DNA of 64,000 nucleotides from Alphaproteobacteria bacterium. Its GTDB lineage: Bacteria; Pseudomonadota; Alphaproteobacteria; JAJTHO01; CANGXP01. The stretch is from assembly GCA_947457935.1 (NCBI GenBank), contig CANGXP010000002.1, positions 47,701 through 111,700 on the forward strand, given 5' to 3'. The position numbers and the translations under genes are program-made. Below are positions 1-5,864 of the stretch, in pieces (within the stretch, counting starts at the first letter, position 1; each line of letters begins with the position of its first letter). The notes beneath the pieces are model-generated. The model had not been told where the DNA came from and searched no databases. It worked only from the letters and a program-made list of their open reading frames with translations.

Positions 1-264
1 GCACAAAAAACGGGTAAATCTCCTGAAGAGGCAATTTACCAAGGCTGTTTGCTGCGCTTCCGCCCGATTATGATGACCACCATGGCAGCTATTTTCGGCG
101 TGCTCCCCATTGCGGTAGGGCACGGCGCAGGGGCAGAATTACGCCAACCATTGGGGCTTGTGGTGGTGGGCGGGTTGCTTACCTCGCAACTCCTCACGCT
201 GTATATTACGCCTGTGGTTTATTTGTATTTGGAGCGATTGCAGAGTCGCTTTAGGCTCTGTTGA
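1..264 (+). CDS. Partial gene, 3-prime end only: C-terminus of an RND-family (AcrB-like) efflux transporter
   Basis: Translation ...[59 protein letters not shown]... resembles the last transmembrane helices of HAE1/RND pumps. The ORF runs from the window edge to a stop at 262-264. Confidence 0.55.
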
Positions 265-398
265 GATTTTAAGTATTTTGAGGCGAAAATGGCTGTTTGC
301 CGAGCATTGGAGCGCAAGTGTACTTTTGGGTACATGCGCACCGAAGCGCAGGAAAATCAGACATTTGCAGACCAAAAGACGACAAATATCAATAGGGT

Positions 399-1952
399 CT
401 AACGTCGTCGAAAAGCTGCCCTAAGTTTCCGCGCATCTACCGCTTTAAACACCGCACAAAACAGCGCGAACAGCACACAGAATCCTGTAATAATAGCAAC
501 CAGCGCACCAATTCTCAGGGCGGCATGATGCCCCAAATTATACAAAAACGGGGTAATAAACGGCAACGCATATTCTATAGCCGCACTCATCCATCCTGCT
601 GCAACGAGGCACTTGGCTAGAAAAATCAGCAGTGGTTTGTCGAACGAAATAGCGTCTTGCTTGTGCAACCGTGTGCTCAACAAAAACACATTCAGCCACG
701 CGGCAATCGCGGTTGAGAGTGCCAACCCAACGTGCGCTAACGGCTGCATCAGAATGAAGTTCAACACAATATTTGCCGCCACACACACCATCGCTATTTT
801 CACAGGGGTTTTAGTATTTTCCCGTGCAAAAAATCCCGCTGTGAGCACCTTAATAATAATATAGGCAGGTAAGCCCACCGCAAAGGCTTGCAGAGCTTGG
901 GACGTGCCTTTCACAGCCTCGAGTGTAAATTCTCCGCGCAAAAACAAAACGTGCATAATCGGCTTTGCCAGCAGCATCAACACCACGGTGGTGGGAATCG
1001 CCACCAACAAGCCAATCTCTAACGCTTGGTTCTGTGTTTTAAGGGCTTCGGAGAGATTATTCTCCCGCAACTGCCGTGACAACATGGGCAGTAATGCGGT
1101 TCCCAAAGCAATGCCAATCACGCCTAAAGGAAGTTGATTGAGCCGATCCGCATAATACAAATACGTCACCGCCCCTTCAGGCAACAGGGTTGCGAGCATC
1201 GTATCCACCATCACGTTGAGTTGATACACACTCGCCCCCAAAATTCCAGGTAACAGCAACTTCAATAACTGCTTGATTTCAGGGGATAGTCGTGGGCGGA
1301 CAAAAATAGGGAACTGTAAGTTATAACGATACAATGCCCACACCAAAATCCCGAGTTGTAGCACGCCGCCCAGCGTGACGTTCCAAGCAACCGCATGTCC
1401 CGCAGACGAACTATAGTGTTGCCATGTTGACAATCCTGCAATCAACGCGAGGTTGAGCCAAATAGACGATGCTGCTCCTTCTGCAAATTTCAGGTTTGCG
1501 TTCAGAATGCCTGTGAGCATCGCTGCTAACACAATCAAAATCATATACGGCAAGGTGATGCGGCATAATTCAACAGTAAAGGCAAATTTCTGCGGCTCAT
1601 CCGCAAATCCGGGGGCAAGCAGATGCACCACTTGCGGCGTGAACACCATACATACCACGCATAACGCCGTCACGGTGAGAAACAAAAACACAAAACTTTG
1701 CGTGGCAAAATGCTTTGCCTGTTCTTTGGAGGCGGTGAGTTCTCGGGTATACAGCGGCACAAAAGCCGCACTAAACGCGCCTTCTGCCAGCAATCTACGA
1801 AACAAATTCGGCAAGCGGAACGCAACCAAAAATGCATCGGATACCACGCCTGCACCCAACACCGATGCCATCAGCAAGTCGCGGGCAAAGCCCATCACCC
1901 TGCTAACGAGAGTAAGACCGCTTAGGGTGGCGATGGCGCGAACGAGGGACAT
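399..1952 (-). CDS. murJ: Lipid II flippase MurJ (MviN)
   Basis: 517-aa polytopic membrane protein whose N-terminus MSLVRAIATLSGLTLVSRVMGFARDLLMASVLGAG...DAFLVAFRLPNLFRRLLAEGAFSAAFVP is characteristic of MurJ/MviN. Confidence 0.85.
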   Translation of the reverse strand: MSLVRAIATLSGLTLVSRVMGFARDLLMASVLGAGVVSDAFLVAFRLPNLFRRLLAEGAFSAAFVPLYTRELTASKEQAKHFATQSFVFLFLTVTALCVVCMVFTPQVVHLLAPGFADEPQKFAFTVELCRITLPYMILIVLAAMLTGILNANLKFAEGAASSIWLNLALIAGLSTWQHYSSSAGHAVAWNVTLGGVLQLGILVWALYRYNLQFPIFVRPRLSPEIKQLLKLLLPGILGASVYQLNVMVDTMLATLLPEGAVTYLYYADRLNQLPLGVIGIALGTALLPMLSRQLRENNLSEALKTQNQALEIGLLVAIPTTVVLMLLAKPIMHVLFLRGEFTLEAVKGTSQALQAFAVGLPAYIIIKVLTAGFFARENTKTPVKIAMVCVAANIVLNFILMQPLAHVGLALSTAIAAWLNVFLLSTRLHKQDAISFDKPLLIFLAKCLVAAGWMSAAIEYALPFITPFLYNLGHHAALRIGALVAIITGFCVLFALFCAVFKAVDARKLRAAFRRR

Positions 1953-1959
1953 GATGGCA

Positions 1960-3075
1960 TCATTTCACAACAAATAACGCATCAGAAAAAGCGGTAAACA
2001 CTCCATTCTTAGCTTTATGCGAAAAGGAAACAGCCATTTTATCAATATTTCTACTGTCGAAAGCATCCACATATGTATTAATCGTTGTTGTCAACGCATC
2101 AATATTACGCTTTAATTTCCATGATGCGTCAAAATCCGCCGTATCAATAAGGATTAAGAATAAACGATTGGATGCGTCAAAACGCATTTCTCCCTGTTCC
2201 TCATACAAATTTTGAATAAGCTTTCTGGGGTTTTTAACACATTGTTTTGCAAGGTTTTTTCTAAAGTCTGTAATTTCTTTAAGTGCCATATGGGCTTCAG
2301 GTAGAGCGCTGTCTTTGAAACGTGCCACGATTTCTGCAAACACATCTTTTTGTCTACCATCGCTCCCATATGCAATGTTTAGGATTTTTGCAGTAGATTT
2401 TAAGTGTGAGAATTCGGATTTTAAGCCTTCTTGTTTACGACACATCTCTACAAAATTTGTTGGAAGGTAGGTAACTTTTAAATCAAAGGGGATGTTATCA
2501 ATAAAAAAATCTACTTTTTTCACATTTCCAACAGCGGGCAAAACCTTTGGATGCTTTTTAAAAATGTTCTCTATGAGAATGGTTGACCAATGATTGTACC
2601 AACTGCATATGACATACCCATAGACAGCACGCGGTATCTCTGTCTCCAACATCCTATTAATAGTTTCATATGAGGGATATTCCTTCACATATGTATCTAT
2701 CAAATACTTATCAAGGGCATTTTTATAATCACCACCCCAATCAAAGTGCTGCACCCGATACAATTCGGAAACGAGCGAATTTTCTCGTTCAACAGAAAGT
2801 AGAGCCGTCTTCTGACGAATAAAAACATCTATTTGTAAATGCGCCTCTTGAGGATTTTCTAAAAGAATTTCATAAAGGCTTTTGAATTTTTGCGCTGTAC
2901 CTTTCACCGACGGAACATTGAGTTGAGCGTAGAATTCATCAAGAATTGTCCCTCGCGAAATAGATTTGAGCTTTAACCACAATAGCCCTTCCGTCGTTTG
3001 TGTTAATTCTGCAAGATTATCTGAATCAAATAAACGCTTAAAAAAATCAAAATCAATCATGGCTATTTCCTGCAA
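1960..3075 (-). CDS. Hypothetical protein, candidate restriction endonuclease partner of the adjacent methyltransferase (PD-(D/E)xK-like motif VDFFIDNIPFDLK)
   Basis: 371-aa ORF in an AT-rich segment. It overlaps the upstream MTase gene by 13 nt on the same strand. Its D-x9-DLK spacing is compatible with a PD-(D/E)xK nuclease core. I recognise no other family motif. Confidence 0.35.
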   Translation of the reverse strand: MQEIAMIDFDFFKRLFDSDNLAELTQTTEGLLWLKLKSISRGTILDEFYAQLNVPSVKGTAQKFKSLYEILLENPQEAHLQIDVFIRQKTALLSVERENSLVSELYRVQHFDWGGDYKNALDKYLIDTYVKEYPSYETINRMLETEIPRAVYGYVICSWYNHWSTILIENIFKKHPKVLPAVGNVKKVDFFIDNIPFDLKVTYLPTNFVEMCRKQEGLKSEFSHLKSTAKILNIAYGSDGRQKDVFAEIVARFKDSALPEAHMALKEITDFRKNLAKQCVKNPRKLIQNLYEEQGEMRFDASNRLFLILIDTADFDASWKLKRNIDALTTTINTYVDAFDSRNIDKMAVSFSHKAKNGVFTAFSDALFVVK

Positions 3076-4127
3076 ACCAATAAGTATTCTTTGCTTCCAG
3101 AAACAGAGCCTTTTCCTCCGCGTGATTGAGTATACTCTTTCTCATATGCGATAACATGCCTATATTTTTTAGCAATTTCAATAAGGCTGTTAATATCAGG
3201 ATAAGAGCGACAATTATAGCTTAATAACATATGGGGAATATTTTCAGATGCCGCAAAAAGACGATGAAAGGAGAGTTCTACATCACGCTTTTTGTCAAAG
3301 CCACTGTGCCTAGGGGGATAATATCGCTTGGTTCCCCCCCGAAATTCTTTGTCTTCCCAACGCTCCCCATATGTTTCTAACATATGGTAAAATGCTTGAT
3401 AATCAGCGTGACTACTACAGTAAGGCGGATCATAATACGCAAGGTCAATGCCTGATACTGTTGGCAATAGTGTTAGAATATCATTTTGATAAGAAATATT
3501 GTCCTGTCCATTATCAAAAATAGCGGCATTATACTGAGGTAGTATCTCTAAGAATAACGATTGTATGGGTTTAGCAATGCTCGGATTGCGCCGAATCCTA
3601 TCGGGATTATTAGCATATGGTATCGCTTGCAGGTGTGCAAAATGCCCCATAATAATTTTTCTTGTGAGGCTACGATTCATGACGCAAAGCGCAAGGGCTT
3701 TTTTATAGGGACAGGATAATAGGTCAACATTAGTACGAAAAGTATCAAGAAAAACACTATCTTCTTGATTGAAGAATATCCCTTGAAATAAGGTTTGTAC
3801 TTGGTTTTGCCGCAAAGGATTTTGTGCAAATAAGACAGATGTATCTTCTTTTGAGAGCGTAGCACTCTTGTTTTCTATCAGAGCCTTTCCTGTCATATGA
3901 CAGAATTGCATTAAATCATTGGTATGCACTGCTAAGCCTTGTTGCTTTAAAGCATATGCAACAGATTGTGACCCTCCGAACCCGTCTAATACTGTAGAAA
4001 TATCGTTAGGAAGATATTGTAATATCCAAGGCAATATTTTGTGCTTCGCCCCAAGATATTGGGGTTCGGGAAAATCATATGAACCATGGAATGATTGTGT
4101 GGGATTAAACAGAGGAAGAGCGTGCAT
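3063..4127 (-). CDS. N6-adenine DNA methyltransferase, Dam-like (D12 class)
   Basis: N-terminal AdoMet motif (EPQYLGAKHKILPWILQYLP...VLDGFGGSQSVAYA), a later catalytic DPPY tetrapeptide (LAYYDPPYCSSHADYQAF), and the motif order I-TRD-IV of alpha-class Dam methylases. GC is lower than the flanking DNA. Confidence 0.7.
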   Translation of the reverse strand: MHALPLFNPTQSFHGSYDFPEPQYLGAKHKILPWILQYLPNDISTVLDGFGGSQSVAYALKQQGLAVHTNDLMQFCHMTGKALIENKSATLSKEDTSVLFAQNPLRQNQVQTLFQGIFFNQEDSVFLDTFRTNVDLLSCPYKKALALCVMNRSLTRKIIMGHFAHLQAIPYANNPDRIRRNPSIAKPIQSLFLEILPQYNAAIFDNGQDNISYQNDILTLLPTVSGIDLAYYDPPYCSSHADYQAFYHMLETYGERWEDKEFRGGTKRYYPPRHSGFDKKRDVELSFHRLFAASENIPHMLLSYNCRSYPDINSLIEIAKKYRHVIAYEKEYTQSRGGKGSVSGSKEYLLVCRK

Positions 4128-4154
4128 ATGGTATTGTAGCAGCTCTTGTTATTT

Positions 4155-5864
4155 CTACAAATATCCCATGCTCTGCAGCTTCAAAATAATCCGTTGTGCG
4201 GCTTCTTCGCGAGAGCAGGTAGAGGTATCAATCACCAACTCAGGGTTCGTGGGGGCTTCGTACGGGTCATCAATCCCTGTAAAGCCTTTGAGGATTCCCG
4301 CACGGGCTTTGGCGTATAGCCCTTTGCGGTCGCGGCTTTCGCAGGTTTCAATGGGGGTTGCGACGTGAATTTCAATAAACCCGCTGTTGCCTGCAAAACT
4401 AGCACGAATGTCGTTGCGGGTTTGTGCGTAGGGCGCAATCGGGGCACAAATCGCAATACCACCTGCCTTGGCAATTTCTTGCGCCACATACCCAATACGG
4501 CGTACGTTGAGGTCACGGTGTTCTTTGGAGAATCCTAGCTCGCTGGAGAGGTTTTTACGCACCAAGTCGCCATCAAGCAAGGTGAGGGAACGCCCGCCCT
4601 GTTCCAGCAACTTTGCCATTAAGGCATTGGCAAGGGTAGATTTCCCCGACCCTGACAGCCCTGTGAAAAACACACAGAACCCTTGTTTGCATTTTGGCGG
4701 ATAGGTACGGCGGAGTTCCTGAATCACAGCAGGGTAGCTGAACCATTCGGGGATTTCCAAGCCTTGCTCAAGGCGGCGGCGGAATTCCGTGCCTGAAATA
4801 GCAAGGGCTTTGTCCTCTGGCTGCAGTTCATCGGCAGGTACATACTCGCTTTTGTTTTCCAGATAGAGCATTTCTTGGAACAACTCAATCTCCATGCCGA
4901 TTTCTGCGGCATGTTGCTTCACCAGCGTTTGCGCGGCGTAGGGATCATAAAACGGTTTGCCTTCTGAATTATTTCCCGGCCCTGCATGGTCACGCCCAAC
5001 AATAAAGTGCGTGCAGCCATAATTTTTACGGATAATGCAGTGCCACAGTGCCTCACGCGGCCCGCCCATGCGCATTGCCAAGGGCAGCAAACTCAACATC
5101 GCTGTTTGGTCAGGGTAGGTACGCAAGACGTGCTCATAGCAACGCACGCGCGAATAATGGTCAACATCCCCTGGTTTGGTCATCCCCACCACAGGGTGAA
5201 TAAGGAGGTTGGCTTCGGCGGTTTTTGCGGCGCGAATGGTTAGCTCCACATGGGCGCGGTGCATCGGATTGCGGGTTTGAAAGGCGACAACCCGCGTCCA
5301 ACCGCGCTCTTGGAAATAAGCACGGAGTTTTGCGGGTGTTAGGCGCAAGTGTCCGAAATCATAATGTGCGGGGAGTTCTAGCCCTGTAATCGTACCGCCT
5401 AGATACACATTTCCTGCTTTAGTATGCAGGTAATTCACCGCAGGGTGCGCTTTGTCATCCGCACCAAACACCGCAACGGCTTCCGCTGCTTTATCAGGTG
5501 TCCATTTTGATTCGAGGGTTAAAATGCCCAACACCACGCCTTCTGCATCACGCAGCGCGATTTTTTCGCCCACGTTCACCGTTTCGGCAAAAGCGTCTGA
5601 CACATCAAGGGTAATAGGAATCGGCCACAGCGTGCCATCTTTCAGGCGCATGTCTTTTAAGCAGCCGTTATAGTCATCAGGGTTCATAAACCCTTTCAGC
5701 GGCGAGAACCCGCCGTTGATGAGCATTTCAAGGTCGCATACTTGACGCGCACTTAAATCAAGAGATTTCAGCGCAACAATCTCTTGTTTTGCTTTGGCGA
5801 TCGCTTCGCCCTCCAGCAATAAATTTACCAGCGTGCCACCGTGGGCGCAAATAAGATTGGTCAT
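4155..5864 (-). CDS. Bifunctional sulfate adenylyltransferase (Sat-type ATP sulfurylase) / adenylylsulfate kinase (CysC) fusion
   Basis: 569 aa. The N-terminal two-thirds carry ATP-sulfurylase motifs (QTRNPMHRAHVEL, GRDHAGPG). The C-terminal third has a P-loop GLSGSGKSTLANAL typical of APS kinase. Confidence 0.85.
   Translation of the reverse strand: MTNLICAHGGTLVNLLLEGEAIAKAKQEIVALKSLDLSARQVCDLEMLINGGFSPLKGFMNPDDYNGCLKDMRLKDGTLWPIPITLDVSDAFAETVNVGEKIALRDAEGVVLGILTLESKWTPDKAAEAVAVFGADDKAHPAVNYLHTKAGNVYLGGTITGLELPAHYDFGHLRLTPAKLRAYFQERGWTRVVAFQTRNPMHRAHVELTIRAAKTAEANLLIHPVVGMTKPGDVDHYSRVRCYEHVLRTYPDQTAMLSLLPLAMRMGGPREALWHCIIRKNYGCTHFIVGRDHAGPGNNSEGKPFYDPYAAQTLVKQHAAEIGMEIELFQEMLYLENKSEYVPADELQPEDKALAISGTEFRRRLEQGLEIPEWFSYPAVIQELRRTYPPKCKQGFCVFFTGLSGSGKSTLANALMAKLLEQGGRSLTLLDGDLVRKNLSSELGFSKEHRDLNVRRIGYVAQEIAKAGGIAICAPIAPYAQTRNDIRASFAGNSGFIEIHVATPIETCESRDRKGLYAKARAGILKGFTGIDDPYEAPTNPELVIDTSTCSREEAAQRIILKLQSMGYL

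Follow-up and report, generated by a model that had tools for sequence, protein, structure and literature searches.

In this study, we analysed a 64,000-nt stretch of contig CANGXP010000002.1 from an alphaproteobacterial genome assembly (GCA_947457935.1), hereafter the window, and in particular a two-gene cassette between the host genes murJ and sat/cysC that is probably a restriction-modification (R-M) system. All coordinates follow the window numbering. The window matches a public metagenome scaffold of roughly 120 kb, whose gene calls and Pfam labels were used. The guanine-plus-cytosine (GC) content is 0.35-0.40 over positions 2000-4200 and about 0.47-0.55 in the flanks, which confirms the low-GC island that a sequence-only reading of this DNA had placed here. 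Its two same-strand genes were recovered as minus-strand open reading frames (ORFs) at 3063..4127 (354 aa, ATG start), coding for a DNA methyltransferase (MTase), and at 1960..3075 (371 aa if a TTG start is taken), coding for a protein of an unnamed family that we call the partner. All four genes of the string are co-oriented, in the order sat/cysC, 27 nt, MTase, 2 nt, partner, 7 nt, murJ (Table 1).

The 13-nt overlap between the two genes and the 371-aa length of the partner, both part of the sequence-only reading, probably do not hold. Because the public gene calls on the identical scaffold give the partner 366 aa, the alignment of its homologues begins at the Met encoded at 3060, and an AGGA motif lies 7 nt upstream of that codon, its start is most likely, on these sequence features, the ATG at 3060 and not the TTG at 3075. 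This ATG comes 2 nt after the MTase stop codon (TAG, 3065-3063), and the overlap is probably an artefact of picking the TTG. Residue numbers of the partner nevertheless follow the 371-aa numbering throughout. No mobility genes, tRNAs or flanking repeats were found at the island borders, and promoter-like and terminator-like signals do not exceed chance there, the gap between sat/cysC and the cassette included. With gaps of only 27 nt and 7 nt to the neighbouring genes, the cassette probably relies on read-through for its transcription.

The product of the first gene (METHYLTRANSFERASE) matches the Pfam family PF02086 (D12 class) with E = 4.5e-17 (63.1 bits; gathering cutoff 22) as well as the type II MTase models of PADLOC (best model MTase_II, 1.9e-45). 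Its FGGS motif (residue 50) precedes DPPY (residue 233), which is the alpha-class order and upholds the earlier assignment to the alpha-class N6-adenine MTases. The label "Dam-like" survived at the level of the D12 class only, as the protein scores 24 bits against the Dam model TIGR00571, below the cutoff of 114.85. By its motifs and profile matches the enzyme belongs to the alpha-class N6-adenine MTases but is no orthologue of Dam, and therefore GATC cannot be assumed as its target. The ratio of nonsynonymous to synonymous substitution rates (dN/dS) between the window and a related strain (L087) is 0.06 for the MTase and likewise 0.06 for the partner; both cassette genes are under strong purifying selection.

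The partner, which contains VDFFIDNIPFDLK, matched nothing in Pfam, NCBIfam, PADLOC or PHROGs, and neither a single-sequence (phmmer) nor a profile search of the PDB sequences gave a match. Pfam scans of ten of its relatives (nine full-length proteins, mostly at 23-33% identity, and a fusion protein) revealed no named family for the partner either. The family is nevertheless large: with a threshold of E <= 1e-3 it has 2537 homologues, none of them named and each about 365-372 aa in length. It comprises 653 clusters at 50% identity, and relatives occur in 424 species-representative genomes from many phyla, Flavobacterium included. Among 2.9 million viral contigs only 2 carry the family, and a tblastn search of plasmid and phage collections returned no record carrying it.

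What characterizes this family is its linkage to MTases. A D12 MTase homologue adjoins the partner in 65 of the 82 loci fetched, directly upstream and on the same strand in every case except locus L031. In that locus (L031:6001-8200, from an Alphaproteobacteria metagenome-assembled genome, MAG) the order is reversed, the partner preceding the MTase on the same strand, and the cassette is rich in CATATG (7 sites). No D12 homologue was found at the remaining 17 loci. Neighbouring ORFs were listed for 15 of these, and in 14 an ORF of roughly 500 aa lies upstream of the partner, often overlapping it, while the upstream side of the 15th (L060) is lost at a contig end. Three of the ~500-aa ORFs were scanned, and all three proved to be PF01555 N6/N4 MTases. 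In one 729-aa protein (P0270), a D12 domain (residues 18-270) is joined to a full partner domain (364-729); this could be a genuine fusion or an artefact of a frameshift or of assembly. The flanks of the cassette differ at every locus compared. Constant linkage to an MTase, an MTase family that can be swapped and changing flanks are, in combination, how restriction endonucleases classically show themselves in genomes.

An alignment reaching down to 23% identity retains only 13 invariant and four near-invariant columns. The invariant columns include E169, D189 and D198; K200 is among the near-invariant ones, with Gln in its place in one of the relatives in the 23-33% identity alignment. An AlphaFold2 model of the partner (predicted local distance difference test score 92, predicted template-modelling score 0.89) places E169 on a helix (149-174), D189 at the start of a strand (190-192), and D198 and K200 on the next strand (195-203); further elements are a strand at 178-180, a helix at 206-215, a helical insertion and a strand at 304-310. 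The modelled order of secondary structure, alpha-beta-beta-beta-alpha-beta, is that of a PD-(D/E)xK core. The PD-(D/E)xK-like motif proposed earlier was therefore retained in its conserved residues and in the predicted core order, and was corrected in its spacing, which is D-x8-D-x-K and not D-x9. Among the short-hairpin PD-(D/E)xK enzymes, PvuII has D58...E68-x-K70 and BglII has D84...E93-x-Q95. The partner is like both in that an acidic residue opens one strand and (D/E)-x-K follows on the next, 8-10 residues on, and the divergent relative with Gln in place of Lys has the BglII form.

The most conspicuous property of the cassette is its content of the palindrome CATATG. The window holds 23 copies, 15 of them within 2070-4130 and 8 in the remaining 62 kb. 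Amino-acid contexts able to encode the hexamer are His-Met, Ser/Pro/Thr/Ala-Tyr-Val/Ala/Asp/Glu/Gly and x-Ile-Cys/Trp, and each of the 14 such contexts in the two genes is used; the one remaining site lies across the start codon of the MTase. Synonymous-codon shuffles gave an expectation of 5.2 +/- 1.6 sites, none of 2000 shuffles reached 14, and an exact calculation from the codon usage of the cassette itself puts the probability of 14 out of 14 at 3.6e-8. Under this codon-aware null, CATATG is alone among the 4-mer and 6-mer palindromes in being enriched in the cassette, and no consensus extends beyond the hexamer at its sites. The contexts themselves are dense, with 14 in about 720 aa as against 3.0 per 1000 aa in the host genes of the window, and several sites rest on a lineage-specific Tyr or His, at positions that are taken by Glu, Lys, Phe or other residues in the relatives. 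The L087 cassette, at 6% DNA divergence, keeps 14 of the 15 sites, where about 10 would be expected by chance (P about 0.03, an estimate). Decay of the partner gene was considered as a reason for its tolerating the sites and was ruled out by its dN/dS of 0.06.

Table 1 Features of the cassette and of its borders in window coordinates
Feature	Coordinates	Strand	Basis
D12-class (alpha) N6-adenine DNA methyltransferase, 354 aa	3063..4127	-	PF02086, PADLOC MTase_II
Partner, 366 aa from ATG at 3060, putative restriction endonuclease, unnamed family	1960..3060	-	MTase linkage
MTase motif I F-G-G-S, residues 50-53, S-adenosylmethionine binding	3969..3980	-	read from sequence
MTase motif IV D-P-P-Y, residues 233-236, catalytic	3420..3431	-	read from sequence
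Partner, invariant Glu169 codon, helix 149-174, candidate first active-site acidic residue	2569..2571	-	alignments A1, A3
Partner, D189...D198-L-K200 codons, beta-hairpin 190-192/195-203, candidate PD-(D/E)xK core	2476..2511	-	alignment and model
CATATG over MTase start codon	4125..4130		
CATATG, MTase S-Y-D	4076..4081		
CATATG, MTase A-Y-A	3953..3958		
CATATG, MTase H-M	3894..3899		
CATATG, MTase P-Y-A	3614..3619		
CATATG, MTase H-M	3381..3386		
CATATG, MTase T-Y-G	3368..3373		
CATATG, MTase H-M; sole window site missing in L087	3228..3233		
CATATG, MTase A-Y-E; Tyr unique to lineage, relatives E or K	3143..3148		
CATATG, partner T-Y-V	2688..2693		
CATATG, partner S-Y-E; position common to 9 site-rich cassettes	2667..2672		
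CATATG, partner V-I-C	2606..2611		
CATATG, partner A-Y-G; Tyr here, Phe in most relatives	2367..2372		
CATATG, partner H-M; His unique to lineage	2287..2292		
CATATG, partner T-Y-V	2070..2075		
AGGA ribosome-binding site of partner, within 3' end of MTase gene	3068..3071	-	7 nt before ATG at 3060
Low-GC island inserted between murJ (start 1952) and sat/cysC (stop 4155-4157)	1953..4154		GC, empty site
Bifunctional sat/cysC, host gene directly upstream, 27-nt gap	4155..5864	-	Pfam label on matching public scaffold
murJ flippase, host gene directly downstream, 7-nt gap	399..1952	-	Pfam label on matching public scaffold

Site saturation is not confined to the window. CATATG counts over 79 other cassettes of the family are bimodal, and a per-cassette test without pre-grouping found 12 of the 79 at upper-tail P < 0.01, where 0.8 would be expected by chance, and 9 at P < 0.001. 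These 12 cassettes use 60-100% of their opportunities, six of them all. In the closest known relative of the window cassette (L091, 64% identical, lying between ahpC and trxB), 4 of 5 opportunities are used (P = 8e-4). When the site-rich cassettes were pooled, CATATG ranked first in enrichment among 2080 strand-collapsed hexamers (70 vs 7.6 expected) and was the sole enriched palindrome under the codon-aware null (78 vs 25.2); since the pooled group was chosen by its counts, the unbiased evidence comes from the per-cassette tests. In the site-rich cassettes, the hexamer falls in 42 alignment columns, mostly lineage-specific, and CATATG-embedded start codons occur in about half of these cassettes. 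In L091 and L087, the hexamer lies over the start codons of both the MTase and the gene that follows the cassette, and in L002 sites bracket the cassette.

A neighbour-joining tree, which carries no support values, resolves the site-rich cassettes into one basal clade that includes the window and four or five isolated lineages. The latter nest among site-free relatives, and the state recurs in at least five places in the tree. The other 67 cassettes use 8 of 89 opportunities against 14.8 expected, and sister cassettes that are equally AT-rich have no CATATG site at all. Avoidance inside the site-free cassettes was not detected by the codon-aware count (8 vs 10.0), for which they offer too few opportunities to give power, and in a Markov ranking of these cassettes CATATG stands only 192nd of 2080 hexamers. 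As judged from the locus coordinates, saturation shows no clean correlation with MTase-partner spacing or with gene order.

Host DNA also bears on the recognition sequence. Host genes flanking site-free, D12-linked cassettes use 6% of their CATATG opportunities (z = -5.0; the expectation is about 2.7 times higher), those flanking site-free, PF01555-linked cassettes use 3% (z = -4.0; about five times higher), and over the whole of the DNA flanking the D12-linked cassettes the Markov observed-to-expected ratio (O/E) of CATATG is 0.28. Near site-rich cassettes, by comparison, host genes hold 20 CATATG vs 10.2 expected, the highest enrichment of any of the 64 hexamer palindromes, and the opportunity count for these flanks gave 20 vs 9.9, about 2-fold; the enrichment is driven by a few loci such as that of a Geobacter MAG (L017). 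In this MAG, which has a site-rich cassette, 7 CATATG lie within 2 kb (L017:10994-12961) at 4-6 kb from the cassette, in purF, a phosphoribosyltransferase gene and a gene for a pyruvate:ferredoxin oxidoreductase subunit; across the flanking genes, CATATG fills 7 of 9 opportunities. In some hosts, CATATG enrichment may thus extend past the cassette. CGATCG at the PF01555-linked loci (including L033, L034, L045, L046 and L076) served as an internal positive control for palindrome enrichment linked to an MTase. It is 2.8-fold enriched in the host genes flanking these loci, many of which are cyanobacterial (68 vs 24.3, z = 10), presumably reflecting the HIP1 phenomenon.

Because CATATG is depleted in hosts of cassettes with either MTase type and saturated in other cassettes, these sequence statistics make it the most likely recognition site, in place of GATC. 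We hold this assignment only somewhat above even, because the host depletion is not unique to CATATG and no methylome or REBASE evidence for it was found in the literature.

Taking these results together, we consider it reasonably probable, from gene content, conservation and site statistics, that the island is a Type II R-M cassette with CATATG specificity and an endonuclease of an uncharacterised family. According to this model, a promoterless cassette, co-oriented between sat/cysC and murJ, would be transcribed by read-through; its first gene would supply an alpha-class N6-adenine DNA methyltransferase that marks host CATATG sites at their adenines, and its second a restriction endonuclease that cuts unmarked CATATG in incoming DNA. 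The putative active site of the latter would consist of E169, D189 and D198-x-K200 on a helix followed by a beta-hairpin, and its N-terminal helical region may be the DNA-binding part. The cassette would have been driven, here and in several unrelated lineages of the family, to the maximum CATATG load that its proteins permit. Nuclease activity, CATATG as the recognition site and a function for the saturation are what we infer in this model. The R-M module proposed in the sequence-only reading thus stands as the best reading, backed by the MTase linkage, the two MTase families, the fusion and the conserved motif, and the nuclease match that it called for in the partner did not appear.

The partner gave no profile or fold match to any nuclease, and its core showed no three-dimensional similarity to the solved PD-(D/E)xK members. 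Several observations weigh against this model. For an active nuclease, 15 own sites inside 2.1 kb of its own genes would run counter to the usual self-avoidance of such systems. Among the 64 hexamer palindromes, CATATG ranks 18th in depletion in D12-linked hosts and 3rd in PF01555-linked hosts. The host genes of the window are neutral for it (7 of 51 opportunities used vs 7.4 expected), which fits a recent arrival of the cassette. Finally, neither the literature nor the supplements of a prokaryotic methylome survey (PMC4752239) gave support for CATATG methylation by this MTase.

An alternative that we consider unlikely, and that fares best of the rivals, is that the methylase works with a partner that is not a nuclease, for instance one that reads or binds methylated CATATG. 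The pair would then be an epigenetic module or one that promotes transfer, and the accumulated sites would be cis-acting targets of the partner. The absence of a detectable nuclease fold or family in the partner favours it, as does the resemblance of the N-terminal part of the partner to SAP-type helical modules (1v66, 2rnn, 2rno, 2do5). SAP domains bind DNA. Accumulation of sites would moreover be expected for a beneficial bound motif and not for a cleavage target, and HIP1 offers a precedent, being a palindrome that is kept by selection (PMC5861425) and raises transformation when methylated (bioRxiv 10.1101/2024.09.10.611283). A binding protein is, however, a poor explanation for the conserved E...D...D-x-K set on a helix plus hairpin, or for the exchange of one MTase family for another beside a retained partner, as is typical of restriction enzymes needing any cognate protector. 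Most family members are, in addition, site-free and their hosts deplete CATATG, as if the partner cuts it.

A Dam/DpnII-like R-M system recognizing GATC, which the sequence-only reading had offered as one specificity, now appears very improbable. Its MTase would be of the D12 class, as found, and GATC is indeed depleted, with 1 copy in the cassette vs 5.3 expected, O/E values of 0.24-0.57 in related cassettes and 0.31 in the host. This depletion does not discriminate, however, because most 4-mer palindromes are depleted in cassettes and flanks alike, TCGA, ACGT, CTAG and GGCC among them. The MTase falls far short of the cutoff of the Dam model, the partner and its divergent relatives match no Pfam family, DpnII included, and a GATC specificity would leave the CATATG signal unexplained. 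Weakest of all, and hardly worth entertaining, is the notion that the surplus of CATATG has no significance and merely follows from the AT-rich codons (TAT, CAT and NCA) of foreign DNA that is free of avoidance: codon usage alone does lift the expectation from about 0.7 sites (a base-composition estimate) to 5.2, but the shuffles and the exact probability reject it, the density of opportunities is high, amino-acid replacements have created contexts, start codons are overlapped and AT-rich sisters are site-free.

Compared with known systems, the putative Type II R-M cassette is partly orthodox. EcoRV and DpnII are Type IIP systems with D12 MTases that form N6-methyladenine. Like orthodox Type IIP systems, the cassette pairs an MTase gene with a co-oriented endonuclease candidate, is low in GC and patchy across phyla, and sits in housekeeping loci without mobility genes. 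It differs from them in that no described family includes its endonuclease candidate and no solved structure matches it, its MTase is not a Dam equivalog, and the cassette here accumulates a palindrome instead of avoiding it. CATATG is also the target of the Type IIP enzymes NdeI and FauNDI, the latter from a Flavobacterium; the recognition proposed here would be the same, its specificity being derived from sequence statistics.

For the saturation itself, the nearest parallel is HIP1 (GCGATCGC) of cyanobacteria, which has been linked to orphan methyltransferases (PMC4390886, PMC5861425). Selection keeps HIP1 abundant (PMC5861425), and when methylated it raises transformation up to 60-100-fold (bioRxiv 10.1101/2024.09.10.611283). 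As with HIP1, a palindrome here far exceeds expectation; unlike HIP1, the excess is confined to a 2-kb cassette and not genome-wide, the MTase has a nuclease-like partner, and the host genes of the window are neutral. Two other cases are more distant. In Neisseria gonorrhoeae, under-methylated CCGG clusters at pilE/pilS are cut by resident R-M systems, which triggers recombination (PMC13321361). The largest survey of site representation found modest genome-wide over-representation, mainly of CCGG in Helicobacter, and called it unexplained (PMC4687349); that excess is about 1.4-1.5-fold genome-wide, whereas every coding opportunity is used here. Neither case concerns the R-M genes themselves, in contrast to the present cassette, and in the searchable literature we found no description of R-M genes filled with their own recognition site.

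By analogy with these systems, it is conceivable, if on balance doubtful, that positive selection in some lineages has loaded the cassette genes with the very palindrome that the cassette recognizes and methylates, making the cassette a small-scale analogue of HIP1 or of DNA uptake sequences. Sister lineages of one family would then live under opposite regimes, strict avoidance in some and saturation in others. Of three ideas on what saturation does, we rank first that methylated own-sites could favour transfer or recombination of the cassette, for which HIP1 is a precedent. Second, the sites could act as a local fuse: when methylation lags, the cassette would be cut first, giving negative feedback on the nuclease or promoting recombination, much as in the Neisseria pilE/pilS case. 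Third, a putative site-generating bias of repair or conversion that goes with the enzymes could saturate the cassette, as the DNA constantly exposed to it, and, with residence time, enrich host genes as well.

The history of the locus was also followed in related strains. The sequence-only reading had called the island horizontally acquired, and the comparison bears this out. In a related strain, whose MurJ belongs to the same 90% identity cluster, sat is followed by murJ across a 210-bp gap with no cassette, and on another contig from the sample holding this empty site the cassette adjoins murJ. The L087 cassette region is 94% identical to that of the window at the DNA level, and synonymous divergence (dS) between the two is 0.20-0.30 in the cassette and 0.57-0.81 in sat and murJ. 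As dS is lower in the cassette than in the flanking genes, these alignments suggest that the cassette moved between strains after the strains had diverged; extra constraint on its synonymous sites could add to the low dS. On the evidence of the empty site and of dS, the island is thus a horizontal acquisition. The host is an uncultured proteobacterium; the closest labelled relatives of the window's Sat/CysC, at 70-74% identity, are from Alphaproteobacteria and Holosporales MAGs.

In strain L085, the sequence upstream of murJ is unrelated to that of the cassette except for 9 nt, GTGRAATGA, which it has in common with the cassette's last codons. These 9 nt at the right junction are common to the cassette end in the window population and to the empty site, which hints at microhomology-mediated insertion. 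The notion that the cassette moves as an NdeI fragment bounded by CATATG was rejected, as its internal sites would be cut and the junction looks like microhomology. The start codon of murJ lies within CATATG in the closest strains (CGTCATATGTC; L086:1-99, L087:5990-6003, L088:1-198), the window has GCCATCATGTC at this position and the empty-site strain has ACTATATG; the murJ start context therefore differs between cassette-bearing and empty-site strains.

The sample with the empty site (JGI 3300059473; contigs of 37.9, 9.98, 4.7 and 2.0 kb) holds, besides the window-type cassette, two more members of its clade (P0002 and P0005, 59-64% identical), at least P0002 in a different genomic context. 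With an empty site and several cassettes in one sample, several variants of the system are present in one community. In L091 (840-969, 3133-3141), ahpC is followed by 130 nt, the MTase, 3 nt, the partner, 9 nt and trxB, and in the window the corresponding borders are at 1953-1962 and 4128-4154. The cassettes of this clade are co-oriented with the housekeeping gene strings that hold them, with very short gaps, and appear to lack promoters of their own.

Other words are avoided in the host DNA of the window (1-1900 and 4200-64000). O/E is 0.10 for GGCC, 0.08 for CCGG and 0.31 for GATC, and among hexamers CCGCGG (0 observed vs 16.8 expected), GATATC (1 vs 17.5), GGCGCC (2 vs 20.6) and TCATGA (1 vs 12.8) are scarce; CATATG (8 vs 11.1) is not among the avoided words. 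This pattern of depletion suggests that the window host has had a long history with several other restriction systems.

In summary, a plain R-M reading of the island is of a known kind; what is new is the self-site saturation, its recurrence and the opposite regimes of sister lineages. If the cassette is an R-M system, hundreds of species carry an endonuclease family that has no name, no structural relative and no Pfam, NCBIfam or PADLOC model, and current annotation of defence systems would overlook the partner family. It is a textbook expectation, backed by large surveys (PMC4687349), that the recognition sites of R-M systems are generally avoided. Here, one palindrome takes every available codon context, amino-acid replacements have made more such contexts, and site-free relatives stand alongside on the tree. 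If CATATG is the recognition site, this would point to an undescribed selective force on R-M cassettes, acting through self-regulation, addiction or transfer; if it is not, a process that targets this palindrome specifically in the cassette genes would be at work.

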